Part shown: positions 1-16,567 of the stretch, in pieces
Position numbering within the stretch: the first letter of the stretch is position 1
Layout of the letters: each line of letters opens with the position of its first letter
NCBI GenBank assembly: GCA_000004985.1
Contig: GG738974.1
Reading direction: 5' to 3' (one strand)
DNA length: 16,567 nt
Origin: Naegleria gruberi
Taxonomy: Eukaryota
Notes under the pieces: generated by a model
Database searches by the model: none
The model's input: the letters and a program-made list of their open reading frames with translations, nothing else
What the model was told of the DNA's origin: nothing
Position numbers and translations under genes: made by a program

Positions 1-119
1 GCATGCATCATTTCCACTGCACAACATGCCAAACCAAAGGTTACTGGCCACATGGAACCAACACGTGCCCAAGCAAACAAATCATGAAGAGGTGCTTTGA
101 GAAATTCAACTGAAGACAT
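1..119 (-). CDS. NDUFS7: 5' end (first 39 codons) of the NADH:ubiquinone oxidoreductase 20-kDa Fe-S subunit (NuoB/PSST/NDUFS7 family); the gene continues past the window start
   Basis: Minus-strand translation from the ATG at 117-119 gives [40 protein letters not shown]. The block [23 protein letters not shown] is the hallmark N-terminal block of NuoB/NDUFS7. An in-frame TAA lies 10 codons upstream of the ATG. The ORF is missing from the track only because it runs off the window edge. Confidence 0.6.
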
Positions 120-184: not shown

Positions 185-345
185 TTGTGTCGATAGGGTT
201 AATGCTAAACCTCGAGTGAAAACTTGTGGACCACGCGAGCTTGGTCGAACCTTCAACGATCCTCGCGTGAATCATACTACCGTAATTGTACGTAATTATC
301 ATGAAAATTAAATCTACAACCCTAACTGCAATAGCTAATATCAAT
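185..345 (+). repeat. Copy 1 of a ~150-bp dispersed repeat with an internal hairpin (stem cacgcgag, 22-nt loop, ctcgcgtg) and a B-box-like GGTTCGACC on the complementary strand
   Basis: The core at 211-275 is about 90% identical to the reverse complement of 6738-6800. Similarity decays towards 185 and 345. Confidence 0.6.
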
Positions 346-524
346 TAAGGAGTGCTATTCAATGATGTTTTTTTATTTGTTGTACTTCTTGCTGTTGTAG
401 CATAGAGGTACAACGCTGGATATGGAGGTACATGACCAGTTTTCGATTCTTGGAGATCGAATTATCTTATTTTATTTTTGGCCATTCACCCGCTCATTTT
501 ATTTCGTCATTCCTGATGGTGGAT

Positions 525-553
525 TGACGCTTTTTTTGACGTCATCGCTGACG
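525..553. promoter_or_regulatory. Three TGACG motifs at exact 12-bp spacing (525, 537, 549); the middle one is part of the perfect palindrome TGACGTCA (537-544). This is a candidate bZIP (CRE/as-1-like) binding module
   Basis: Read directly from the sequence: TGACGcttttttTGACGtcatcgcTGACG. It lies about 410 bp upstream of the minus-strand NuoB-type gene start. Confidence 0.3.
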
Positions 554-589
554 ATTTTGCATAAAGTTACTCCAAAGTTAATTATCGAT

Positions 590-665
590 ATTCTGTTGTG
601 TTCTACTTGATGTTGTAATGTGTTGTTTATTTGTTGTTGTTTGTTTTGTGTTGTTTTGATGATGA
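590..665. repeat. GT-rich low-complexity tract, (TTG)n/(TGT)n-like
   Basis: tgttgtgttctacttgatgttgtaatgtgttgtttatttgttgttgtttgttttgtgttgttttgatgatg. Confidence 0.6.
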
Positions 666-745
666 AAATCAGTGAAGGAGGAGGTGACGTATTTCAGACT
701 TGTGAATTTTTTTGAAAATTTTAAAAAAAAAAATACAAATTTCAC

Positions 746-764
746 AAGCTTGACTATCAAGCTT
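746..764. other. Perfect 8-bp-arm hairpin AAGCTTGA-cta-TCAAGCTT, 18 bp downstream of the stop of the minus-strand gene at 782 and next to an 11-A run (722-732)
   Basis: Read directly from the sequence. The arms are exact reverse complements, and each contains a HindIII site. Confidence 0.5.
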
Positions 765-781
765 AACATCATGTCTGGAAA

Positions 782-1165
782 TTATTCTTTGATCAAACTA
801 TTGATTGCCTTCCGAACACTTTCTTTATCCCATCCCCTTGCTTCAAAGAACTTTCTACATACTGTTCTTTGATCAGTTGTGAGTTCTCCTATAGGTTTCT
901 TGAAGTGATGATGTGCTAACAATTCCAAGCACTGTTTTTGAGTCACATTACCAATAAGCATTTTGATAATGTCTGGAGGAATTGAATAAGTTATACCATT
1001 TACGGTAGTGTTGAATGCAAGCCCTGAAAATAGATGAGCAAACCTTTTTGTGAGGTCAGTTAATACCTTTTCACATTGGATAATGGCATTGATGAACTCT
1101 GGAAAAGCTTTGTCCTTATCTATCAAATCAAAGATGTAATCGACATGCTCTGGAACAATCACAAT
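782..1165 (-). CDS. C-terminal 127 codons of a large protein truncated by the assembly gap. Function unknown; a weak resemblance to the hAT-family C-terminal dimerisation region is noted
   Basis: ORF ...PEHVDYIFDLIDKDKAFPEFINAIIQCEKVLTDLTKRFAHLFSGLAFNTT...IPPDIIKMLIG...WDKESVRKAINSLIKE* with a TAA stop at 782-784. The reading frame is open all the way into the N run. Confidence 0.4.
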   Translation of the reverse strand: MVIVPEHVDYIFDLIDKDKAFPEFINAIIQCEKVLTDLTKRFAHLFSGLAFNTTVNGITYSIPPDIIKMLIGNVTQKQCLELLAHHHFKKPIGELTTDQRTVCRKFFEARGWDKESVRKAINSLIKE

Positions 1166-4100
1166 NNNNNNNNNNNNNNNNNNNNNNNNNNNNNNNNNNN
1201 NNNNNNNNNNNNNNNNNNNNNNNNNNNNNNNNNNNNNNNNNNNNNNNNNNNNNNNNNNNNNNNNNNNNNNNNNNNNNNNNNNNNNNNNNNNNNNNNNNNN
1301 NNNNNNNNNNNNNNNNNNNNNNNNNNNNNNNNNNNNNNNNNNNNNNNNNNNNNNNNNNNNNNNNNNNNNNNNNNNNNNNNNNNNNNNNNNNNNNNNNNNN
1401 NNNNNNNNNNNNNNNNNNNNNNNNNNNNNNNNNNNNNNNNNNNNNNNNNNNNNNNNNNNNNNNNNNNNNNNNNNNNNNNNNNNNNNNNNNNNNNNNNNNN
1501 NNNNNNNNNNNNNNNNNNNNNNNNNNNNNNNNNNNNNNNNNNNNNNNNNNNNNNNNNNNNNNNNNNNNNNNNNNNNNNNNNNNNNNNNNNNNNNNNNNNN
1601 NNNNNNNNNNNNNNNNNNNNNNNNNNNNNNNNNNNNNNNNNNNNNNNNNNNNNNNNNNNNNNNNNNNNNNNNNNNNNNNNNNNNNNNNNNNNNNNNNNNN
1701 NNNNNNNNNNNNNNNNNNNNNNNNNNNNNNNNNNNNNNNNNNNNNNNNNNNNNNNNNNNNNNNNNNNNNNNNNNNNNNNNNNNNNNNNNNNNNNNNNNNN
1801 NNNNNNNNNNNNNNNNNNNNNNNNNNNNNNNNNNNNNNNNNNNNNNNNNNNNNNNNNNNNNNNNNNNNNNNNNNNNNNNNNNNNNNNNNNNNNNNNNNNN
1901 NNNNNNNNNNNNNNNNNNNNNNNNNNNNNNNNNNNNNNNNNNNNNNNNNNNNNNNNNNNNNNNNNNNNNNNNNNNNNNNNNNNNNNNNNNNNNNNNNNNN
2001 NNNNNNNNNNNNNNNNNNNNNNNNNNNNNNNNNNNNNNNNNNNNNNNNNNNNNNNNNNNNNNNNNNNNNNNNNNNNNNNNNNNNNNNNNNNNNNNNNNNN
2101 NNNNNNNNNNNNNNNNNNNNNNNNNNNNNNNNNNNNNNNNNNNNNNNNNNNNNNNNNNNNNNNNNNNNNNNNNNNNNNNNNNNNNNNNNNNNNNNNNNNN
2201 NNNNNNNNNNNNNNNNNNNNNNNNNNNNNNNNNNNNNNNNNNNNNNNNNNNNNNNNNNNNNNNNNNNNNNNNNNNNNNNNNNNNNNNNNNNNNNNNNNNN
2301 NNNNNNNNNNNNNNNNNNNNNNNNNNNNNNNNNNNNNNNNNNNNNNNNNNNNNNNNNNNNNNNNNNNNNNNNNNNNNNNNNNNNNNNNNNNNNNNNNNNN
2401 NNNNNNNNNNNNNNNNNNNNNNNNNNNNNNNNNNNNNNNNNNNNNNNNNNNNNNNNNNNNNNNNNNNNNNNNNNNNNNNNNNNNNNNNNNNNNNNNNNNN
2501 NNNNNNNNNNNNNNNNNNNNNNNNNNNNNNNNNNNNNNNNNNNNNNNNNNNNNNNNNNNNNNNNNNNNNNNNNNNNNNNNNNNNNNNNNNNNNNNNNNNN
2601 NNNNNNNNNNNNNNNNNNNNNNNNNNNNNNNNNNNNNNNNNNNNNNNNNNNNNNNNNNNNNNNNNNNNNNNNNNNNNNNNNNNNNNNNNNNNNNNNNNNN
2701 NNNNNNNNNNNNNNNNNNNNNNNNNNNNNNNNNNNNNNNNNNNNNNNNNNNNNNNNNNNNNNNNNNNNNNNNNNNNNNNNNNNNNNNNNNNNNNNNNNNN
2801 NNNNNNNNNNNNNNNNNNNNNNNNNNNNNNNNNNNNNNNNNNNNNNNNNNNNNNNNNNNNNNNNNNNNNNNNNNNNNNNNNNNNNNNNNNNNNNNNNNNN
2901 NNNNNNNNNNNNNNNNNNNNNNNNNNNNNNNNNNNNNNNNNNNNNNNNNNNNNNNNNNNNNNNNNNNNNNNNNNNNNNNNNNNNNNNNNNNNNNNNNNNN
3001 NNNNNNNNNNNNNNNNNNNNNNNNNNNNNNNNNNNNNNNNNNNNNNNNNNNNNNNNNNNNNNNNNNNNNNNNNNNNNNNNNNNNNNNNNNNNNNNNNNNN
3101 NNNNNNNNNNNNNNNNNNNNNNNNNNNNNNNNNNNNNNNNNNNNNNNNNNNNNNNNNNNNNNNNNNNNNNNNNNNNNNNNNNNNNNNNNNNNNNNNNNNN
3201 NNNNNNNNNNNNNNNNNNNNNNNNNNNNNNNNNNNNNNNNNNNNNNNNNNNNNNNNNNNNNNNNNNNNNNNNNNNNNNNNNNNNNNNNNNNNNNNNNNNN
3301 NNNNNNNNNNNNNNNNNNNNNNNNNNNNNNNNNNNNNNNNNNNNNNNNNNNNNNNNNNNNNNNNNNNNNNNNNNNNNNNNNNNNNNNNNNNNNNNNNNNN
3401 NNNNNNNNNNNNNNNNNNNNNNNNNNNNNNNNNNNNNNNNNNNNNNNNNNNNNNNNNNNNNNNNNNNNNNNNNNNNNNNNNNNNNNNNNNNNNNNNNNNN
3501 NNNNNNNNNNNNNNNNNNNNNNNNNNNNNNNNNNNNNNNNNNNNNNNNNNNNNNNNNNNNNNNNNNNNNNNNNNNNNNNNNNNNNNNNNNNNNNNNNNNN
3601 NNNNNNNNNNNNNNNNNNNNNNNNNNNNNNNNNNNNNNNNNNNNNNNNNNNNNNNNNNNNNNNNNNNNNNNNNNNNNNNNNNNNNNNNNNNNNNNNNNNN
3701 NNNNNNNNNNNNNNNNNNNNNNNNNNNNNNNNNNNNNNNNNNNNNNNNNNNNNNNNNNNNNNNNNNNNNNNNNNNNNNNNNNNNNNNNNNNNNNNNNNNN
3801 NNNNNNNNNNNNNNNNNNNNNNNNNNNNNNNNNNNNNNNNNNNNNNNNNNNNNNNNNNNNNNNNNNNNNNNNNNNNNNNNNNNNNNNNNNNNNNNNNNNN
3901 NNNNNNNNNNNNNNNNNNNNNNNNNNNNNNNNNNNNNNNNNNNNNNNNNNNNNNNNNNNNNNNNNNNNNNNNNNNNNNNNNNNNNNNNNNNNNNNNNNNN
4001 NNNNNNNNNNNNNNNNNNNNNNNNNNNNNNNNNNNNNNNNNNNNNNNNNNNNNNNNNNNNNNNNNNNNNNNNNNNNNNNNNNNNNNNNNNNNNNNNNNNN

Positions 4101-5706
4101 NNNNNNNNNNNNNNNNNNNNNNNNNNNNNNNNNNNNNNNNNNNNNNNNNNNNNNNNNNNNNNNNNNNNNNNNNNNNNNNNNNNNNNNNNNNNNNNNNNNN
4201 NNNNNNNNNNNNNNNNNNNNNNNNNNNNNNNNNNNNNNNNNNNNNNNNNNNNNNNNNNNNNNNNNNNNNNNNNNNNNNNNNNNNNNNNNNNNNNNNNNNN
4301 NNNNNNNNNNNNNNNNNNNNNNNNNNNNNNNNNNNNNNNNNNNNNNNNNNNNNNNNNNNNNNNNNNNNNNNNNNNNNNNNNNNNNNNNNNNNNNNNNNNN
4401 NNNNNNNNNNNNNNNNNNNNNNNNNNNNNNNNNNNNNNNNNNNNNNNNNNNNNNNNNNNNNNNNNNNNNNNNNNNNNNNNNNNNNNNNNNNNNNNNNNNN
4501 NNNNNNNNNNNNNNNNNNNNNNNNNNNNNNNNNNNNNNNNNNNNNNNNNNNNNNNNNNNNNNNNNNNNNNNNNNNNNNNNNNNNNNNNNNNNNNNNNNNN
4601 NNNNNNNNNNNNNNNNNNNNNNNNNNNNNNNNNNNNNNNNNNNNNNNNNNNNNNNNNNNNNNNNNNNNNNNNNNNNNNNNNNNNNNNNNNNNNNNNNNNN
4701 NNNNNNNNNNNNNNNNNNNNNNNNNNNNNNNNNNNNNNNNNNNNNNNNNNNNNNNNNNNNNNNNNNNNNNNNNNNNNNNNNNNNNNNNNNNNNNNNNNNN
4801 NNNNNNNNNNNNNNNNNNNNNNNNNNNNNNNNNNNNNNNNNNNNNNNNNNNNNNNNNNNNNNNNNNNNNNNNNNNNNNNNNNNNNNNNNNNNNNNNNNNN
4901 NNNNNNNNNNNNNNNNNNNNNNNNNNNNNNNNNNNNNNNNNNNNNNNNNNNNNNNNNNNNNNNNNNNNNNNNNNNNNNNNNNNNNNNNNNNNNNNNNNNN
5001 NNNNNNNNNNNNNNNNNNNNNNNNNNNNNNNNNNNNNNNNNNNNNNNNNNNNNNNNNNNNNNNNNNNNNNNNNNNNNNNNNNNNNNNNNNNNNNNNNNNN
5101 NNNNNNNNNNNNNNNNNNNNNNNNNNNNNNNNNNNNNNNNNNNNNNNNNNNNNNNNNNNNNNNNNNNNNNNNNNNNNNNNNNNNNNNNNNNNNNNNNNNN
5201 NNNNNNNNNNNNNNNNNNNNNNNNNNNNNNNNNNNNNNNNNNNNNNNNNNNNNNNNNNNNNNNNNNNNNNNNNNNNNNNNNNNNNNNNNNNNNNNNNNNN
5301 NNNNNNNNNNNNNNNNNNNNNNNNNNNNNNNNNNNNNNNNNNNNNNNNNNNNNNNNNNNNNNNNNNNNNNNNNNNNNNNNNNNNNNNNNNNNNNNNNNNN
5401 NNNNNNNNNNNNNNNNNNNNNNNNNNNNNNNNNNNNNNNNNNNNNNNNNNNNNNNNNNNNNNNNNNNNNNNNNNNNNNNNNNNNNNNNNNNNNNNNNNNN
5501 NNNNNNNNNNNNNNNNNNNNNNNNNNNNNNNNNNNNNNNNNNNNNNNNNNNNNNNNNNNNNNNNNNNNNNNNNNNNNNNNNNNNNNNNNNNNNNNNNNNN
5601 NNNNNNNNNNNNNNNNNNNNNNNNNNNNNNNNNNNNNNNNNNNNNNNNNNNNNNNNNNNNNNNNNNNNNNNNNNNNNNNNNNNNNNNNNNNNNNNNNNNN
5701 NNNNNN
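1166..5706. other. Assembly gap (4541 N)
   Basis: N run in the sequence. Confidence 1.
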
Positions 5707-5719
5707 TCTGCACCCTTTT

Positions 5720-6517
5720 TCAACTTTCAGAGTTAATTTCTTGCAACTTTTCTATCTGCTCTTGAAGTAATTCCTTCACCTTCACAGGAACTGATTCAAG
5801 GTCATTTTTGCCAAATAGCTGTGTTTTAATGGTACGTACTGTTCTGTTAATAGCATCAATATTGCTAACTGCAATTCGCATATCAGGATCATTTGTTATT
5901 GACTTTCGTTTTCTAAATTTTCTTCCCGTGATACTAGGATCACTTTTTACTGCCTCAACCATTTTTTCCTTCATCTTCTTAGGTTGGGTACTTGTACGTA
6001 AATGACAATGTTCATGATCACCATTGAAACCAAAAATATAATTGGTAACTTTGTTGCCATCAACAACTTGTTCTTCTGACTTATAACAATATACCTTTGA
6101 GCTACAATCAATAATTTTAGACAACATATTATTACAAACATTGCAAACCCTATGCTTGTTTGTAAAGTGAGGAAATGATTTGGCAAATGGATCGTTTGTT
6201 TTTATGGTACTAAGGTTGGAGCTTACATTTTCAGAACAAACTTCACACTTTTTAAATCCTTGACAAGAACCCATACGATATTGATTGTATACAACACCAT
6301 TGATTGTTACTGAAAATGGTTTTAATTTTTGGAAACCATTAAAATGGGTTCCAAAATTCAAGTCTTCTCTTAAAGATGGGACCGTTCCTGATAGACAAGT
6401 TACATGATAAAACATCTTGTCCTCTGGCATTCTGTTAATAAACTTAATGTCTTCAACTGTTGTAACGTTGTCCTTATTTGCAAACAACCATTGCCCTGGG
6501 GAGAATCTTGGAGCCAT
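5720..6517 (-). CDS. Hypothetical 265-aa Cys/His-rich protein with a C2H2/BED-like zinc-finger motif (CEVCSENV...HFTNKH) and further CxxC and HxHCH clusters
   Basis: ATG-initiated ORF MAPRFSPGQW..., far longer than any antisense ORF over the same region. It shares the CxVCxENV motif with the neighbouring 6963-7730 gene. Confidence 0.5.
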   Translation of the reverse strand: MAPRFSPGQWLFANKDNVTTVEDIKFINRMPEDKMFYHVTCLSGTVPSLREDLNFGTHFNGFQKLKPFSVTINGVVYNQYRMGSCQGFKKCEVCSENVSSNLSTIKTNDPFAKSFPHFTNKHRVCNVCNNMLSKIIDCSSKVYCYKSEEQVVDGNKVTNYIFGFNGDHEHCHLRTSTQPKKMKEKMVEAVKSDPSITGRKFRKRKSITNDPDMRIAVSNIDAINRTVRTIKTQLFGKNDLESVPVKVKELLQEQIEKLQEINSES

Positions 6518-6700
6518 TTTTTTTGTGCAGAAATTGATAAAATAAGGCGGGAAAAAAATCTTTTGTAAACAATCAGTTTAAGGTTTGCAAAAAAAACTTA
6601 ACATTTAGACGGGGATCGAACTTGCTCCAATACCATGTGTTGCACAATGTCTGTCACCTGAACTACCAATGATTACACATTTAGGTGAATTTTTATTGCA

Positions 6701-6830
6701 TAGTTGGATGGTTGAAATTAAGATAATTAAGGTCAAAAGATTCGCGCGAGGATTGTTGTGAGTTCGATCAAGCTCGCGTGGTTCACAAGTTTTCACTCGA
6801 GGTTTGACAGCTACCCGTGTCGATATCCTC
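6701..6830 (-). repeat. Copy 2 of the ~150-bp dispersed repeat, inverted relative to copy 1
   Basis: The reverse complement of 6738-6800 aligns to 211-275 at about 90% identity. It has the same cacgcgag...ctcgcgtg hairpin and a B-box-like GAGTTCGATC. Confidence 0.6.
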
Positions 6831-6962: not shown

Positions 6963-7730
6963 TTAATGATTGTTTGCAGGCCTGTATGCAATCTTTCCTC
7001 GCATTAGTGGACGTTTCTCCTCAACCAAATATTTGGAGAATGAAACACAATGACCTTGTTTTACATGATGTTCAAAATCATTGTCACTAATTACTTCATA
7101 AACATTTTCTTTACAAACAGCACAAAACGAAACTCCTTTCGAAACATGTCTAAAAGCAGTAGACTTCTTCAATGGACATTCATATTCCCAATCACAATTC
7201 TCAATAAATTGTCTGTCCTTATTCTTTCTAAATTTTGATCCTAAAGGTCCAGATTCTTCTTTAATTATTTTCGAAAGTGGTAATTCTTGTGGAAATTTGT
7301 TTTGTAAATGGATGACTCTCCTTCTCATGACATGCATCCAATTCTTGACATTTAAACTTGCCGAATAATTTGGAAAGTAATAAAGTACAAGTGGTTTCCA
7401 CAAAAGTGTCTGAGCAAGTGCAGTTTCGTTTTCTTTATACTGATCTTTGACCGATACAATCCTACTTTCAAGGTCAAGTTGCAACAATTCTTGTTTTCTC
7501 TTTGCAATGGCCTCCACTTTTTCAACAGTCAAATCAAAAATCATTTCCAATAAATATTCATCACTTCTCGCAAAAGAATTCAAATCTCCAATTGGTAAAT
7601 ATTGTGCAATTATTAAAATTAATTCCGTGCTGAGAGTTTCTTTAAAGATGTTGTGTTTTGTGGAGGGAAGAGAGGACAAGTCATCATCGGCTTCATTATT
7701 CGAAACTCGAGAGAAGATCTTTTTGAACAT
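6963..7730 (-). CDS. Hypothetical 255-aa protein with an F-box-like N-terminal segment (LSTELILIIAQYLPIGDLNSFARSDEYL) and a C-terminal C2H2/BED-like zinc finger (CAVCKENV x10 HHVKQGH)
   Basis: ATG-initiated ORF MFKKIFSRVS... It shares CxVCxENV and F.H....HxC spacing with the 5720-6517 protein. It is divergently oriented to the 8022 gene. Confidence 0.5.
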   Translation of the reverse strand: MFKKIFSRVSNNEADDDLSSLPSTKHNIFKETLSTELILIIAQYLPIGDLNSFARSDEYLLEMIFDLTVEKVEAIAKRKQELLQLDLESRIVSVKDQYKENETALAQTLLWKPLVLYYFPNYSASLNVKNWMHVMRRRVIHLQNKFPQELPLSKIIKEESGPLGSKFRKNKDRQFIENCDWEYECPLKKSTAFRHVSKGVSFCAVCKENVYEVISDNDFEHHVKQGHCVSFSKYLVEEKRPLMRGKIAYRPANNH

Positions 7731-8021: not shown

Positions 8022-9509
8022 ATGTATTTGTGTGGTCGTTTGCCAGTTATTAGTGATTTCTTTGAGGCGTGTTTTGCTGAAGGAACAAAAACATCTTCCC
8101 AAGATAGTGGGTCCCAATTTTTCAACACTGAAGAAGGTNNNNNNNNNNNNNNNNNNNNNNNNNNNNNNNNNNNNNNNNNNNNNNNNNNTCTATTAGAAAG
8201 AATGGATTCCGTAAAAGTTTCTTTTGAGAATTTTGAGAGAACATCTGCTCTCATGGTTTTACTTGCATTTAACTATATTGATAAACCATCCCTTGATCAA
8301 GTTGAACAATGCATTGAACATTGTGACTTGATACTCTATAACTCAGAAAAGCTAGAACCGAGTGATCTTACTTGCATGGCCATGATTCTCTTTAATATCT
8401 ATAAGAAACAACCTTGTTTAGAATTGCTTGGAGATGCTTTCATACTTTCCAGCTTTGCAAATGTAGTTGATCCTCTGGGAGCTGAAACTCTCATGTTACA
8501 GATAGGAAATTCATTCATTGTAAAATTCAAACAGACATTTTCTCCACTGTTATCCCAACTTGTAGAGTTTCTTTCTAGAAGGATATCAACTTCAAATTTG
8601 GGGTCATTGTTGTTCTCTTCTGACACTTTTTGTGAAATACTGTATAGTAATATTACAAGAAACCTAAGACCAGATATTATTCCTTCATCTTCTTTCAAGT
8701 TTGGTGAAGATTTAAAATGTGTATCACGAAAAGAGTTCAAATCACAAAATTTCCTTGAGGATTTATTACGAATTGGAAACTCTAACGACTCAAACCAGCA
8801 GATGTTAAGTTTGTACAAAACCATCAACAGTACATTCCTTTCAATTGATTCTTTCCAAACCAAAGCTCACAAACTGGCATTAGTTTGTCAACTTGTTGTC
8901 AAGAATAAGTTAGAAATGGATAGAAATGAGTTGTTGAATGCTTTGTTAGTCTGTATTCATAATTTCCATCTTGTTTTTGAAACACAGTCCTTTTCACACA
9001 TTTCCCACTCTTCAGAATCGATGCCTGTTAGTGGAAGCAATACTCTCTGCTTCGATTTGTATTACTTTTCTGTTTTTCAATTTTACAACTTGTTGACAGA
9101 CCTCACTACTCTCAAATATCCTGCAGCTGAGAATTGTTTCTATTTCAAAAATATCAACAATAGATTCTTACAGTTTTTATGGAAGAAAGTTATTGAGAAC
9201 TTACAACTTCTTCAAAACAAGATTAGTGCAAGGCAGCAACCCAAAGATTTTAAAGATCACTATTTAACATCTATTCTGTCATCATCTTTTGAGGACACAC
9301 ATAAACACCAGTTGGAGGAGATTAAATCAAATATTGAACAGATTATGATCCTAGCAGAAGAAAATCAAAGGACAATTGATCTTCAAATAGAGAAGGCCAA
9401 GGACAGATTAAACCATTTGAATCAATCGAATCTTACTTCTCAAGAGATTCGAATCATTAAAAGCTTTGGTACAGAAATGCAATCTTTAACTGGGATTGAA
9501 TATGAGTAA
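8022..9509 (+). CDS. Paralog A of an unrecognised conserved protein family (495 aa as assembled; interrupted by the 50-N gap at 8139-8188)
   Basis: ATG-to-TAA ORF. About 88% aa identity to the 15154+ ORF over ~380 aligned residues, with synonymous differences present. Confidence 0.7.
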   Translation: MYLCGRLPVISDFFEACFAEGTKTSSQDSGSQFFNTEEGXXXXXXXXXXXXXXXXXLLERMDSVKVSFENFERTSALMVLLAFNYIDKPSLDQVEQCIEHCDLILYNSEKLEPSDLTCMAMILFNIYKKQPCLELLGDAFILSSFANVVDPLGAETLMLQIGNSFIVKFKQTFSPLLSQLVEFLSRRISTSNLGSLLFSSDTFCEILYSNITRNLRPDIIPSSSFKFGEDLKCVSRKEFKSQNFLEDLLRIGNSNDSNQQMLSLYKTINSTFLSIDSFQTKAHKLALVCQLVVKNKLEMDRNELLNALLVCIHNFHLVFETQSFSHISHSSESMPVSGSNTLCFDLYYFSVFQFYNLLTDLTTLKYPAAENCFYFKNINNRFLQFLWKKVIENLQLLQNKISARQQPKDFKDHYLTSILSSSFEDTHKHQLEEIKSNIEQIMILAEENQRTIDLQIEKAKDRLNHLNQSNLTSQEIRIIKSFGTEMQSLTGIEYE

Positions 9510-9842: not shown

Positions 9843-11747
9843 NNNNNNNNNNNNNNNNNNNNNNNNNNNNNNNNNNNNNNNNNNNNNNNNNNNNNNNNNN
9901 NNNNNNNNNNNNNNNNNNNNNNNNNNNNNNNNNNNNNNNNNNNNNNNNNNNNNNNNNNNNNNNNNNNNNNNNNNNNNNNNNNNNNNNNNNNNNNNNNNNN
10001 NNNNNNNNNNNNNNNNNNNNNNNNNNNNNNNNNNNNNNNNNNNNNNNNNNNNNNNNNNNNNNNNNNNNNNNNNNNNNNNNNNNNNNNNNNNNNNNNNNNN
10101 NNNNNNNNNNNNNNNNNNNNNNNNNNNNNNNNNNNNNNNNNNNNNNNNNNNNNNNNNNNNNNNNNNNNNNNNNNNNNNNNNNNNNNNNNNNNNNNNNNNN
10201 NNNNNNNNNNNNNNNNNNNNNNNNNNNNNNNNNNNNNNNNNNNNNNNNNNNNNNNNNNNNNNNNNNNNNNNNNNNNNNNNNNNNNNNNNNNNNNNNNNNN
10301 NNNNNNNNNNNNNNNNNNNNNNNNNNNNNNNNNNNNNNNNNNNNNNNNNNNNNNNNNNNNNNNNNNNNNNNNNNNNNNNNNNNNNNNNNNNNNNNNNNNN
10401 NNNNNNNNNNNNNNNNNNNNNNNNNNNNNNNNNNNNNNNNNNNNNNNNNNNNNNNNNNNNNNNNNNNNNNNNNNNNNNNNNNNNNNNNNNNNNNNNNNNN
10501 NNNNNNNNNNNNNNNNNNNNNNNNNNNNNNNNNNNNNNNNNNNNNNNNNNNNNNNNNNNNNNNNNNNNNNNNNNNNNNNNNNNNNNNNNNNNNNNNNNNN
10601 NNNNNNNNNNNNNNNNNNNNNNNNNNNNNNNNNNNNNNNNNNNNNNNNNNNNNNNNNNNNNNNNNNNNNNNNNNNNNNNNNNNNNNNNNNNNNNNNNNNN
10701 NNNNNNNNNNNNNNNNNNNNNNNNNNNNNNNNNNNNNNNNNNNNNNNNNNNNNNNNNNNNNNNNNNNNNNNNNNNNNNNNNNNNNNNNNNNNNNNNNNNN
10801 NNNNNNNNNNNNNNNNNNNNNNNNNNNNNNNNNNNNNNNNNNNNNNNNNNNNNNNNNNNNNNNNNNNNNNNNNNNNNNNNNNNNNNNNNNNNNNNNNNNN
10901 NNNNNNNNNNNNNNNNNNNNNNNNNNNNNNNNNNNNNNNNNNNNNNNNNNNNNNNNNNNNNNNNNNNNNNNNNNNNNNNNNNNNNNNNNNNNNNNNNNNN
11001 NNNNNNNNNNNNNNNNNNNNNNNNNNNNNNNNNNNNNNNNNNNNNNNNNNNNNNNNNNNNNNNNNNNNNNNNNNNNNNNNNNNNNNNNNNNNNNNNNNNN
11101 NNNNNNNNNNNNNNNNNNNNNNNNNNNNNNNNNNNNNNNNNNNNNNNNNNNNNNNNNNNNNNNNNNNNNNNNNNNNNNNNNNNNNNNNNNNNNNNNNNNN
11201 NNNNNNNNNNNNNNNNNNNNNNNNNNNNNNNNNNNNNNNNNNNNNNNNNNNNNNNNNNNNNNNNNNNNNNNNNNNNNNNNNNNNNNNNNNNNNNNNNNNN
11301 NNNNNNNNNNNNNNNNNNNNNNNNNNNNNNNNNNNNNNNNNNNNNNNNNNNNNNNNNNNNNNNNNNNNNNNNNNNNNNNNNNNNNNNNNNNNNNNNNNNN
11401 NNNNNNNNNNNNNNNNNNNNNNNNNNNNNNNNNNNNNNNNNNNNNNNNNNNNNNNNNNNNNNNNNNNNNNNNNNNNNNNNNNNNNNNNNNNNNNNNNNNN
11501 NNNNNNNNNNNNNNNNNNNNNNNNNNNNNNNNNNNNNNNNNNNNNNNNNNNNNNNNNNNNNNNNNNNNNNNNNNNNNNNNNNNNNNNNNNNNNNNNNNNN
11601 NNNNNNNNNNNNNNNNNNNNNNNNNNNNNNNNNNNNNNNNNNNNNNNNNNNNNNNNNNNNNNNNNNNNNNNNNNNNNNNNNNNNNNNNNNNNNNNNNNNN
11701 NNNNNNNNNNNNNNNNNNNNNNNNNNNNNNNNNNNNNNNNNNNNNNN
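9843..11747. other. Assembly gap (1905 N), probably hiding the 5' part of the retroelement (gag / ITR)
   Basis: N run in the sequence. Confidence 1.
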
Positions 11748-11769: not shown

Positions 11770-12945
11770 AGATGGAAACAGTCAACAATATTGAACCCAA
11801 TAAACATTGTACCCAAGAAGGGTTCGGATCAATTTCGCTTTATTCTAGACCTAAGGAAGGTCAATTTAGGAATAAAGGACAGTTCCTTCAAGATGGACAA
11901 CATTCAAAGATGTTTGAAATTTGTTCAGAAGGGAATGTGGGCAACAAAGATAGACCTGAAGAAGGGTTACTTCCACGTTCCAATCAGGGAGAAACATCGC
12001 AATCTTCTTGGATTCCGGTACAAGGACAAGATTTATCAGTTCAAATGCCTACCGTTTGGGCTAAGTCAAGCTCCCAGAAATTTCACAAAGATTATGAAAG
12101 AGTTGGTGACCAAGTGGAGAAAGCAGGGTATTCTAGTATTTATTTACATAGACGATATTTTGATTCTAAACAACAGCAAAGAAACTACCCAACTGCTCAC
12201 AGACATAGTCATGAAGGATCTGGAGACATTGGGATGGATAATCCAGAAAGAGAAAAGCGTATTAGCACCGTGTCAACACATAGAGTTTCTCGGTCTGGAA
12301 CTGGATCTCGTACTTGGCCTTGTGAAAATCCCAGTCAACAAACAATCAACAGCCTTAGAAATGATTCAAAAATTCTTATCAGCAAACCAACGGAACAGGT
12401 TTGTAGCATGCAAGAAAGTAGCACAATTCCTCGGAAGGATGGAATTTCTAACTCTTTCAAACCACTACTTTGCTCCCTTTCTTGCTCGTCTTCGGAAGGA
12501 TATGGTGAAAGTAGTAAACGACAAATCTTGGCACGCATCAATGAGAATATTCAGAGGTGCAGCAAAGGATCTAAATATTTTGAAAGATCTGATTCAGGAA
12601 AACAGTGGAATTCCCTTCGAACTGAATTCAATGAACCCAATTCGAGTGAATTCAGATGCCTGCCCAACAGGCTATGGAATTCACGCAGAGTCAACCATTA
12701 CAATTGGAAGATTCACTTCCTCAGAACACATCAATGTGAAAGAGTTAAAAACACTCCTCATTTTCTTCACACAAGCAGATCTGTTAAACCTTTATGGTCC
12801 TGGACAAGCATTCGAAATCAGAGGCGACAATGTTACGGCAATTTCCTATATAAGGAGAGGTTACGGAGTCATAGAAGAACTCTTGTTTCTTAAAAGAAAA
12901 CCAACAATAAATAAACTAATGGATATTGTCCCGAGAAAGGAGTAG
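11770..12945 (+). CDS. Reverse transcriptase-RNase H polyprotein segment (apparently intact, ~390 codons) of a DIRS-like retroelement
   Basis: A continuous frame runs from just after the in-frame TAA/TAG at 11764-11769 to the stop at 12945. YIDD lies at 12145-12156. There is an RNase H DAS..G.G motif. The track starts this ORF at a TTG (11791). Confidence 0.8.
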   Translation, partial: RWKQSTILNPINIVPKKGSDQFRFILDLRKVNLGIKDSSFKMDNIQRCLKFVQKGMWATKIDLKKGYFHVPIREKHRNLLGFRYKDKIYQFKCLPFGLSQAPRNFTKIMKELVTKWRKQGILVFIYIDDILILNNSKETTQLLTDIVMKDLETLGWIIQKEKSVLAPCQHIEFLGLELDLVLGLVKIPVNKQSTALEMIQKFLSANQRNRFVACKKVAQFLGRMEFLTLSNHYFAPFLARLRKDMVKVVNDKSWHASMRIFRGAAKDLNILKDLIQENSGIPFELNSMNPIRVNSDACPTGYGIHAESTITIGRFTSSEHINVKELKTLLIFFTQADLLNLYGPGQAFEIRGDNVTAISYIRRGYGVIEELLFLKRKPTINKLMDIVPRKE

Positions 12946-13400
12946 TAGACAAGTGGCGAGCGGCAAGAGCTTCTTGTCTTTGATAAGGTTGTAAAGATTT
13001 CACATCCTTATGTCTAGTCCCTATAATAATATCCTGAGTAGGAATTCCCTTGATAATACTCTCAGTAGTTGCACCAATACGTAAACTGTGACCAGAAACA
13101 GTGATTTCTGAATCAACAAAGATCATAGCATTCTTGATAAGTTGAGAAACATCGTCAGTGTTGAAGAAAATATTGTCTTGCAATGAAAACAATGGTGAAT
13201 CTGCTGTTTTGAAATGCTGTAGTGTCCTTGTAATCAAAAAGCAATTTCACTGGATACACTGAAGGATTTTCAAGATGCTTGTCAAAAGTAATCGGCTTTT
13301 CTAGTAGAAATCTGTTTTGTGACCACTGAGATCTAATTTGATGTTACCATTTCTAAGCTTAGTAACATAACCCCACTTGAGAGTAAGAGGAATCTCGGTA
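12946..13400 (-). pseudogene. Tyrosine recombinase (phage-integrase/DIRS type) C-terminal catalytic domain, frameshifted
   Basis: The minus ORF 12890-13237 contains GHSLRIGATTESIIKGIPTQDIIIGTRHKDVKSLQPY (the HxxR...Y box II with catalytic Tyr). Upstream, in another frame, are LTLKWGYV (box I-like) and SGHKTDFY (KT lysine region), followed by a stop. Confidence 0.6.
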
Positions 13401-14061
13401 TTCATTTATTTAGACGATATCTTAGTGGTAAATCATTCAAAAGATCAGTTGATCTTAGACAGAGATATAGTTCTAAAGGATAGAAGAGTTTGGATTTCTC
13501 ATTCAAAAAGACAAATGTTGTTTAAATCCAACTCAATTATTAGAATACCTAGGAGTTTTGTTAGACTTTCATCAAGGTTTGGTAAAAATTCCAGAAGACA
13601 AAAAGATTACAACCTTAGAATTCATAGAGGAGCTACTCAATGCTTCCCAGAAACCGCTTTATGTTCCATGCAAGAGAGTTGCCAAGTTCCTAGGAAATTT
13701 GGAATTTCTAACAATTGCCAACAAGTACCTTTCACCATTCATGTGTCGTCTTCGAAAGAACATGATTTCAGCAGTATCAGGAAGAAGTTGGCATGCATCG
13801 ATGAAAATTCACAAAGGTGCATTCAAGGATTTATTGATTCTAAGGGAGTTAATTCAAAAGAACAATGGTAATTCCAGAATGGAGCTCCTCGATTTGGTGG
13901 CCTCTACTCTTAAAGCTATTAAAGAAGAGAAAAAGTATCACAAGAAGGATGCTTTTAATCAAACCAATATCCGAATTATGGAACAAATTCGAAGGAACGA
14001 CGTTCATAATTGCTCATCTGGATGGAAACTTATACTTCAAACCAGAGATTTAGGATGTTAG
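13380..14061 (+). pseudogene. 5'-truncated, frameshifted second RT(-RH) copy, about 55% aa identity to the first
   Basis: GISVFIYLDDILVVNHSKDQ (YLDD at 13407-13418), then ...DIVLKDRRVWISHSKRQML. A frame switch near 13540-13560 continues as LVKIPEDKKITTLEFIEELL...SWHASMKIHKGAFKDL, collinear with RT1. The RNase H motifs are degenerate. Confidence 0.7.
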
Positions 14062-15153: not shown

Positions 15154-16567
15154 ATGGAATTATATGATAGTTCGCCAGATATTAATCCCTTTGATGCCTA
15201 CTTTGCGGTAACAAAAACACCTGCTGAAGATACTGGGGCCCAATTTTTGCAGCACATGAAGAAGGTTTATAGTGATGGATTTGTTAATGGATTTGTTAAT
15301 GGCTACAACTACAGGCAATCATCCGAACCAAAGGATCACAACATATTCCATAGCCACACTAACTATGTTTTGAATCAATCTCTTTCTGTGGTTATCAAGG
15401 CCCAGAGGATACCACAAGCTGGTATTATCACCAAGATATTTTCTCAAGAGCTCCAATCATTTTTCCCGGTTCTGTCCAGTCTTGCCAAATTGATTGAATC
15501 AAACTCACTTGGCAATTATGTAGCATCTTCTGAAGAGCAGGCAATTCTATGCTCACTTGCTGAATGCCTACTCTCAACTGAAATATCAAAACGGGATGCA
15601 ACAGCCATAAAACCAACAAACCTATTAGAAAGAATGAATGCTGTAAAAGTTTCTTTTGAGAATTTTGAGAGAAAATCTGCTCTTATGGTTTTACTTGCAT
15701 TTAACTATATTGATAAACCATCTCTTGATCAAGTTGAACAATGCATTGAACATTGTGACTTGATGCTCTATAACTCAGACAAGCTAGAACCAAGTGATCT
15801 TACTTGCATGGCCATGATCCTCTTTAATATTTATAAGAAACAACCTTGTTTAGAATTGCTTGGAGATGCTTTCATACTTTCCAGCTTTGCAAATGTGGTT
15901 GATCCTGTAGGTGCGGAGACTCTTATGGTGCAGATAGGAAATGCATTCATTGTAAACTTCAAACAGACATTTTCTCCACTGTTATCCCAGGTTGCAGAGT
16001 TTCTTTCTCGTAGAATATCTACTTCAAATTTGGGCTCACTGTTGTTCTCGTCTGACACCTTTTGTGAAATACTGTACAGTAATATTATCAGAAACTTAAG
16101 ACCAGAAATTATTCCATCATCTACTTACAAGTTTGGTGAAGATTTAAAATGTCTGTCACGAAAAGAGTTCAAATCGCAATATTTCCTTGAAGATTTATTA
16201 CGAATTGAGAGCTCTAAAGACTCAAACGAGCAGATGTTGAGCTTGTATAAAACAATCAACAATACGTACCTTTCAAATGATTCATCCCAAACCAAAGCTC
16301 ACAAACTGGCATTAGTTTGTCAACTGGTTGTCAAAAATAAGTTAGATATGGATAGAAATGAGTTTTTGAATGCTCTGTTGGTCTGTATTCATAATTTCCA
16401 TCTAGTTTTTGAAACAGAGCTGATTTCACACGTTTCTCGCTCTTCAGAATCGATGTCTGTTAGTGGAAGCAACACTGTCTGCTTCGATCTGTATTACTTT
16501 TCTGTTTTTCAATTACACGAGTTATTGACTGACCACTCTAATCTCAAATATCCTGCAGCTGAGAATG
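15154..16567 (+). CDS. Paralog B of the same unrecognised family, 3'-truncated by the window end
   Basis: ATG at 15154; the ORF is open to the end of the window. It contains ~110 residues (YSDGFVNGFVNG...KPTN) that in paralog A fall inside the 50-N gap. Confidence 0.7.
   Translation, partial: MELYDSSPDINPFDAYFAVTKTPAEDTGAQFLQHMKKVYSDGFVNGFVNGYNYRQSSEPKDHNIFHSHTNYVLNQSLSVVIKAQRIPQAGIITKIFSQELQSFFPVLSSLAKLIESNSLGNYVASSEEQAILCSLAECLLSTEISKRDATAIKPTNLLERMNAVKVSFENFERKSALMVLLAFNYIDKPSLDQVEQCIEHCDLMLYNSDKLEPSDLTCMAMILFNIYKKQPCLELLGDAFILSSFANVVDPVGAETLMVQIGNAFIVNFKQTFSPLLSQVAEFLSRRISTSNLGSLLFSSDTFCEILYSNIIRNLRPEIIPSSTYKFGEDLKCLSRKEFKSQYFLEDLLRIESSKDSNEQMLSLYKTINNTYLSNDSSQTKAHKLALVCQLVVKNKLDMDRNEFLNALLVCIHNFHLVFETELISHVSRSSESMSVSGSNTVCFDLYYFSVFQLHELLTDHSNLKYPAAEN
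15277..15300 (+). repeat. Perfect 12-bp tandem duplication (ggatttgttaat x2) inside paralog B, encoding GFVN-GFVN
   Basis: Read directly from the sequence. Confidence 0.8.

Follow-up and report, generated by a model that had tools for sequence, protein, structure and literature searches.

A polymorphic 6.6-kb insertion bounded by terminal inverted repeats, with a 9-bp target-site duplication, upstream of a NuoB-type gene of Naegleria gruberi

The window analyzed here, meaning the whole stretch of 16,567 nucleotides (nt) from contig GG738974.1 of assembly GCA_000004985.1, is nuclear DNA of the heterolobosean amoeba Naegleria gruberi. Near its left end, a gene of the NuoB/NDUFS7 type and an open reading frame (ORF) for 255 amino acids (aa) lie on either side of a 6.6-kb segment, which is bracketed by two inverted repeat arms and contains two further ORFs and a long run of undetermined bases (N). 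The GC content is ~33-38% throughout the window, and inside the segment it matches the flanks. Runs of N cover positions 1166-5706, 8139-8188, and 9843-11747. All visible ORFs inside the segment are on the minus strand, the first of them starting ~200 bp inside the right arm. An earlier note, made from the sequence alone, had explained the inverted repeats either as dispersed elements that landed independently in two upstream regions or as the long terminal inverted repeats (TIRs) of a composite DNA transposon. Here we show that the segment is a single insertion, for which a natural empty site exists.

A repeat search of the window revealed the inverted pair at positions 196-287 and 6725-6816 (92 nt, 82% complementary). 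When the arms were aligned with each other by blastn, 190-297 matched 6823-6716 over 109 columns with 79.8% identity (E=5e-21), and a second run aligned 207-301 with 6805-6713 at 83.2% identity (E=3e-18). In a comparison anchored at the tips, 67 of the 80 outermost positions were identical; farther inward, the similarity is gapped and AT-rich. For the 66-nt core of the left arm (207-272), a hand count on the alignment gave 59/66 identical positions (89%). Thus, the inverted repeat that the earlier note had described as bracketing ~6.6 kb is real, but the arms as a whole are ~80-84% identical and the solid similarity spans ~80-100 nt rather than ~150. Beyond ~297 and 6716 it is weak, gapped, and AT-rich, and the outermost bases that had been included (187-195 and 6817-6825) form a direct repeat, not an inverted one. 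No third copy of an arm was detected in the window by repeat search and blastn, and no extra subterminal repeat motifs common to both ends were found beyond the TIRs.

The two arms have common outer boundaries, as the transposon alternative of the earlier note would have it: both tips read GGGT, with the outer ends at 196 (GGGT...) and 6816 (...ACCC). Immediately outside the GGG tips, identity in the ungapped inverted register is 0/9. Inside them, conservation comes in blocks, namely the GGGT tip, seven poorly matching bases, a block with 22/22 identity, and a palindrome whose stem is conserved and whose loop varies. The invariant 22-mer AAACCTCGAGTGAAAACTTGTG, located at 207-228 and, as its reverse complement, at 6784-6805, can fold as a GAAA-loop hairpin. 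In the left arm, the palindrome has a perfect 8-bp stem (232-239 / 262-269). In the right arm (6743-6750 / 6773-6780), one position is non-Watson-Crick (G-T or A-C), so that the 8-bp-stem hairpin assigned to each copy in the earlier note is perfect in one of them. The GGTTCGA motif, placed by the same note in both loops, is exact in the left arm only, on the minus strand; the right arm reads AGTTCGA. Judged from the alignment, this arrangement in blocks is more suggestive of modules for protein binding than of uniform decay.

On its outer side, each arm directly adjoins one copy of a 9-bp direct repeat, GTGTCGATA, that is perfect (9/9 identical) and occurs exactly twice in the window, both times on the plus strand. 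The arm boundaries at 196 and 6816 had been set by the repeat search independently of this duplication. In a simulation with local base composition and 31 symmetric offsets allowed, an abutting direct repeat of at least 9 bp arose with P=4e-4. The segment thus has at its outer ends a target-site duplication (TSD).

Further evidence was provided by a metagenome contig that carries the same locus in the empty state. Using a 40-residue query from the NuoB-type exon, we found a 63-aa product (P0002) in a European Nucleotide Archive (ENA) metagenome assembly, with 100% identity to the exon 1 translation. It is encoded on a contig of 1372 bp (ERZ929261 k127_168724, ERR1078381, PRJEB11402), hereafter L003. 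Positions 1-335 of L003 were aligned with the minus strand of the window from which 196-6825 had been deleted, and 334/335 positions were identical, with no gap across the junction. L003 positions 1-140 correspond to the reverse complement of 6965-6826, positions 141-149 are a single copy of the 9-mer (read as TATCGACAC), and positions 150-335 correspond to the reverse complement of 186-1. L003 resembles neither the arms nor the element's interior. A contig built with 127-mers can pass over 6.6 kb of inserted sequence only if there are reads that cross the empty junction, and so there exists an N. gruberi allele or strain that lacks the element. Because L003 is the empty site with a single 9-mer, positions 196-6816 are one insertion and the inverted repeats are its ends. 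TIRs together with a flanking duplication of fixed length are the signature of a transposase, indicating transposase-mediated insertion. The coordinates of the element and its surroundings are given in Table 1.

Table 1. Features of the insertion and of the host locus (window coordinates)
Feature	Position	Strand	Evidence or remark
NuoB/NDUFS7-type gene, exon 1	1..119	-	start codon 117-119, 67 nt from duplication
Left TSD copy, GTGTCGATA	187..195	+	9-mer search, empty-site alignment
Left TIR	196..297	+	repeat search, blastn, tip-anchored comparison
Whole inserted element	196..6816	.	6621 bp as represented, 4541 of them N; empty-site alignment
NAEGRDRAFT_58999, 3' part (221-aa orphan)	782..1165	-	first 95 residues outside visible window
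N-run over element center	1166..5706	.	transposase gene expected there
265-aa Cys/His-rich ORF	5720..6517	-	ORF list; begins ~200 bp inside right TIR
Right TIR	6716..6816	- (tip GGGT on minus strand)	repeat search, blastn, tip-anchored comparison
Right TSD copy, GTGTCGATA	6817..6825	+	9-mer search, empty-site alignment
Flanking 255-aa host ORF	6963..7730	-	stop codon 137 nt from duplication

Taken together, the element at 196-6816 is with high probability a single insertion of a class II (cut-and-paste) TIR transposon into a 213-bp spacer of N. gruberi, with Mutator (including Mutator-like elements, MULEs) as the most likely superfamily. It is of an already known kind, an ordinary class II transposon. 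The TIR alternative of the earlier note was thus borne out by a common boundary, a TSD, and an empty site, except for the term "composite," which is wrong because the arms are noncoding TIRs of ~100 nt and not flanking copies of an insertion sequence. The flanks are 99.7% identical between the two alleles and the arms only ~84% identical to each other. The simplest reading is therefore that the arms are intrinsically imperfect TIRs rather than diverged duplicates, and that the insertion is recent or polymorphic. Presence or absence of the element between flanks of this identity implies recent transposition and offers a ready PCR marker for strain typing. Transposons of N. gruberi are little described, and an ambiguous repeat pair is here turned into a base-exact mobile element with a TSD and a natural empty allele. 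What this adds is the base-exact delimitation and, through the empty site, the proof that the element was recently mobile.

In the mechanism that we infer for this presumably autonomous element, a DDE transposase would be encoded in the hidden central 4.5 kb. It would bind the conserved TIR blocks, for which the predicted sites, counted from the tip, are the 22-mer at 12-33 nt and the palindrome at 37-74 nt. The enzyme would then pair the ends, cut at the GGG tips, and join them to target phosphates 9 bp apart. Fill-in after such a staggered target cut would generate the 9-bp duplication GTGTCGATA.

Several other explanations of the repeat pair were weighed against a single insertion. In the earlier note, the arms had been considered as two independent solo copies of a dispersed repeat resembling a MITE (miniature inverted-repeat transposable element) or a SINE (short interspersed nuclear element), which would be inverted with respect to each other by chance. 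The arms are indeed short, intergenic, hairpin-bearing, and only ~80-84% identical. In a MITE pair, however, each copy would need TIRs and a TSD of its own, and neither arm has them: no convincing internal TIRs were found in either, and the one TSD is common to both and located at the outer ends only. In addition, a single clean junction takes the place of the two arms and all intervening sequence in L003. A tRNA-derived SINE is not supported either, since ARAGORN found nothing and Rfam returned no family, whether at its gathering threshold or with E<=10. A tRNA-like fold, an A box, and an RNA-family match are all absent, and with GGTTCGA exact in one copy only, the B-box idea of the earlier note is likewise without support. 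We regard independent landings as refuted, with hardly any probability left to them. Alternatively, the element could be old and fixed, with L003 derived from it by precise excision or by a secondary precise deletion between the 9-bp repeats, and with an arm divergence of ~16-20% accumulated after insertion. Age would explain this divergence, and a microhomology-mediated deletion between the 9-bp repeats is possible in principle, but the event would have to be exact and free of a footprint. Moreover, flanks that differ at 1/335 positions and TSDs that are intact at 9/9 are hard to square with ~16% decay of the arms, whose blocky conservation looks like functional constraint and not like uniform decay. 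This history is very unlikely.

Similarly small, and slightly smaller still, is the probability that the segment is no transposase-driven transposon but a virus-like element or linear episome (transpoviron- or Polinton-like) that has TIRs and became integrated. Its length of ~6.6 kb, the TIRs, the orphan ORFs, and a zinc-finger-like protein would suit such an element, and virus-derived DNA is known from N. gruberi. Against it, Polinton-type integrases generate duplications of 5-6 bp and the elements measure 15-20 kb, the GC content inside the insertion matches that of the flanks, and no relative of the ORF or of the TIR was found among viral contigs (0 matches in the arm search). The arms also gave 0 matches in prokaryote genomes, and in metagenomes a single scan gave only 20-mer matches to group I introns on two contigs, L001 and L002. 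These matches bear on a further reading, in which the arms are two paralogous small structured RNA genes or a cis-regulatory RNA, with a GNRA hairpin and then a long one. The GAAA-tetraloop hairpin of the 22-mer is identical to the P9 hairpin of the introns on L001 and L002, and the second hairpin has a conserved stem. In contrast, folding z-scores were weak on either strand (-2.0, +0.4, -1.5, and -1.8), Rfam gave no match at E<=10, the strand hints of the two hairpins conflict with each other, and the arms coincide exactly with the two ends of a mobile insertion. An RNA function as the explanation of the pair has next to no probability in our judgment, leaving the single transposon insertion as the preferred explanation.

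The intron similarity itself can be described more closely. The 20-mer from the invariant block matches two soil metagenome contigs, L001 at 12186-12212 (minus strand) and L002 at 698-724 (plus strand). On both, this site lies at the 3' end of a group I intron (RF00028), where it forms the GAAA-tetraloop hairpin of J7/9-P9. Identity between the TIRs (207-228 and 6784-6808) and these contigs spans 24-25 nt and stops abruptly on both sides. L001 harbors two introns of the RF00028 type and several short ORFs that, read by eye, are of the LAGLIDADG homing-endonuclease type; it looks like a mitochondrial contig. No copy of the 20-mer occurs in 596 Gb of prokaryote genomes, and viral contigs lack the 22-mer that contains it. 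A group I intron at the arms was considered and rejected: no RF00028 match was found around either arm at E<=10, and the similarity is limited to the P9 hairpin. The match is probably due to chance, because one independent 20-mer match is about as expected in a collection of that size, although the 4-5 extra matching bases are mildly surprising.

Two genes are visible inside the element. The open frame at 785-1165 (minus strand) is 100% identical to the 221-aa protein of NAEGRDRAFT_58999 (P0001), and tblastn of P0001 on the window recovered residues 96-221 only. At the edge of the N-run, the window codon 1163-1165 specifies Ile, and the annotated protein has Tyr. Either the N-run masks real sequence at least in part, or the assembly state of the window differs from that used for the annotation. 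Real sequence under at least part of the N-run is indicated because the N-terminus of NAEGRDRAFT_58999, which is acidic and serine-rich, must be encoded there. The ~4.3 kb hidden under the run is room enough for a transposase. A weak resemblance of the visible fragment to hAT dimerization domains, seen in the earlier note, was not confirmed: the fragment is the C-terminus of this orphan, and neither it nor P0001 contains a Pfam domain, with no Dimer_Tnp_hAT match at E<=10. A homologue search with the 127-aa fragment matched its own annotated protein only, and the AlphaFold2 model of NAEGRDRAFT_58999 is of low confidence (predicted local distance difference test, pLDDT, 52).

The 265-aa ORF beside the right TIR has a Cys/His-rich part, then a stretch of basic residues, and a tail of helical character. 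No homologue was found among 5.8 billion clustered proteins or among 1.84 billion representative proteins searched exhaustively with HMMER. Pfam found no domain in the ORF or its sub-fragments, and the AlphaFold2 model (pLDDT 36) is unusable. The ORF may represent the transposase's N-terminal module for DNA binding, or its first exon.

Two further observations concern the interior of the element. On the minus strand at 6590-6700, a tRNA-like T-loop motif, GTTCGATCC, is followed by eight T; no gene was detected there by ARAGORN or Rfam, and the motif may be what is left of a tRNA-like fragment or may mean nothing. Between the left TIR and the NAEGRDRAFT_58999 stop codon, a 480-bp spacer contains a cluster of TGACG / TGACGTCA motifs, similar to the cAMP response element (CRE), at 520-560 and 684-692.

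Turning to the superfamily, a 9-bp TSD combined with TIRs of ~100 nt and a body of several kilobases is typical of Mutator/MULE elements, whose TSDs measure 9-11 bp, a range that includes the 9 bp found here. The same combination argues against hAT (8 bp), Tc1/mariner, piggyBac, PIF/Harbinger, CACTA, and Polinton. The element resembles MuDR/Mu of maize and the MULEs of plants, fungi, and protists in the length of the TIRs (~100-200 bp in these elements), the 9-bp TSD, and the multi-kb body. Further shared traits are genes that start just inside the TIR and the conservation of subterminal blocks rather than of the tips. It differs from them in that its visible part contains no MURA-type transposase or SWIM finger and its TIRs are only ~84% identical. 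It also differs from Pack-MULEs, as there is no sign of captured fragments of host genes. With hAT elements it shares only the general organization of a cut-and-paste element with TIRs and a TSD; of their 8-bp TSDs, TIRs of 10-25 bp, YARNG tips, and C-terminal dimerization domain, none is seen here. Membership in hAT is disfavored by the 9-bp TSD, the ~100-nt TIRs, the GGGT tip, and the lack of a Dimer_Tnp_hAT match at E<=10.

Within Mutator, one described group is of particular relevance. MuDRF is a distant branch of the MuDR superfamily, in which one and the same protein carries both a DNA-binding domain of the GCM type and a DDE transposase domain; TSDs of 9 bp flank its elements, and a full-length one was found in N. 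gruberi (Cantu et al. 2011, PMC3164196). Beyond this remark in PMC3164196, we found nothing in the literature on MITEs or MULEs of Naegleria. We compared the 265-aa ORF with the mouse GCMa domain (PDB 1ODH, sequence verified). The best gapped alignment, which is statistically not significant, is colinear for C76, C113, C116, C125, H152, and H154, and pairs the motifs SCxGxxxC, CxxCNxxLxKxIxC, VTN[Y/F], and FxxxGxHxH. The paired Cys and His residues of 1ODH are reportedly zinc ligands. The likeness to MuDRF therefore comprises the 9-bp TSD, the occurrence in N. gruberi, and a first ORF with Cys/His residues colinear with GCM, though without significance. We think the odds slightly better than even that the element belongs to Mutator/MULE, plausibly to the GCM-domain MuDRF branch, and possibly it is a MuDRF copy already in Repbase.

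A number of results weigh against this assignment or against the transposon reading as a whole. The tips are poorly conserved between the arms beyond GGGT. Pfam detected no transposase domain in either visible internal ORF, the center of the element being N. No paralogues of the two internal proteins were found in protein databases, so there is no sign of a multicopy family. The GCM similarity lacked statistical support in each test applied: BLASTP of the 265-aa ORF against 1ODH gave E=0.89, which is not significant; 12-15% of shuffled sequences reached the same alignment score; hhalign against an approximate three-sequence GCM profile gave a probability of 0.2%; Pfam returned no GCM match, also with sub-fragments; and phmmer of the PDB did not recover 1ODH. 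MuDRF elements are described with one protein, whereas the present element has at least two separate ORFs, and its DDE domain would lie under the N-run. Finally, Merlin elements generate TSDs of 8-9 bp, and the 9-bp TSD would fit these too.

The last point leads to the alternative that the element is a TIR transposon of another or an undescribed superfamily (Merlin, an atypical hAT, or a new one) and that its Mutator-like TSD and TIRs are coincidental. This is doubtful, yet it deserves attention, given that the transposase region is hidden by the N-run, both visible ORFs are complete orphans, and the GCM similarity is not significant. Merlin TIRs can moreover be long. On the other hand, Merlin elements are typically 1.4-3.5 kb long with a single IS1016-like transposase ORF, unlike the 6.6 kb and several ORFs found here, and hAT is disfavored because the TSD measures 9 bp, the tips read GGGT, and no hAT domain was found. 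The 9-bp TSD, ~100-nt TIRs, and multi-kb body with several ORFs form the classic Mutator/MULE pattern, and MuDRF with 9-bp TSDs has already been reported in N. gruberi (PMC3164196). That the transposon represents an undescribed lineage seems improbable; if it did, either there would be a new transposase or cargo combination in Heterolobosea, or a self-splicing intron would have been the source of a TIR module.

The insertion separates two closely spaced host genes. In the empty allele, the spacer from the stop codon of the 255-aa ORF to the NuoB start codon measures 213 bp (137 + 9 + 67), which fits a compact genome. The next called gene on L003 (410-679) encodes a Pfam Oxidored_q6 domain. A contig from the same metagenome (L004, positions 1-2589) contains the NuoB gene of a related species, with 77% aa identity in exon 1. 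By comparison with this relative, NuoB starts at the window ATG 117-119, since the L004 protein starts at the homologous position (MAKAEFLKAP...) and the intron follows ...MMHASAS in both. The upstream neighbor on L004 is different, and no TIR-like sequence is present there. In the window, 67 bp of original sequence are left upstream of the NuoB start codon, and the left TIR probably occupies former promoter space. The insertion of a transposon so close to the start of this complex I (NuoB/NDUFS7) gene may have changed its promoter. The 255-aa ORF on the other side has an F-box-like N-terminal segment, a Cys/His-rich C-terminus, and a sub-threshold match to DDE_3 (E=0.046).

To the right of this locus, the window contains a direct duplication of 945 bp with 90.6% identity (8190-9134 and 15622-16566), implying a paralogue of the ORF at 8022-9509 that continues past the right end of the window. 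Retroelement remnants are located between the two copies. They include an ORF for a reverse transcriptase at 11791-12945 (RVT_1, E=9e-25), an ORF with weak similarity to tyrosine recombinases at 12890-13237 on the opposite strand to it (E=0.021), and a second fragment with a YLDD motif at 13377-14061. DIRS1-like copies in N. gruberi were described as too degraded to classify (PMC3266345), and the region 11791-14061 looks like degenerate DIRS-like remnants.

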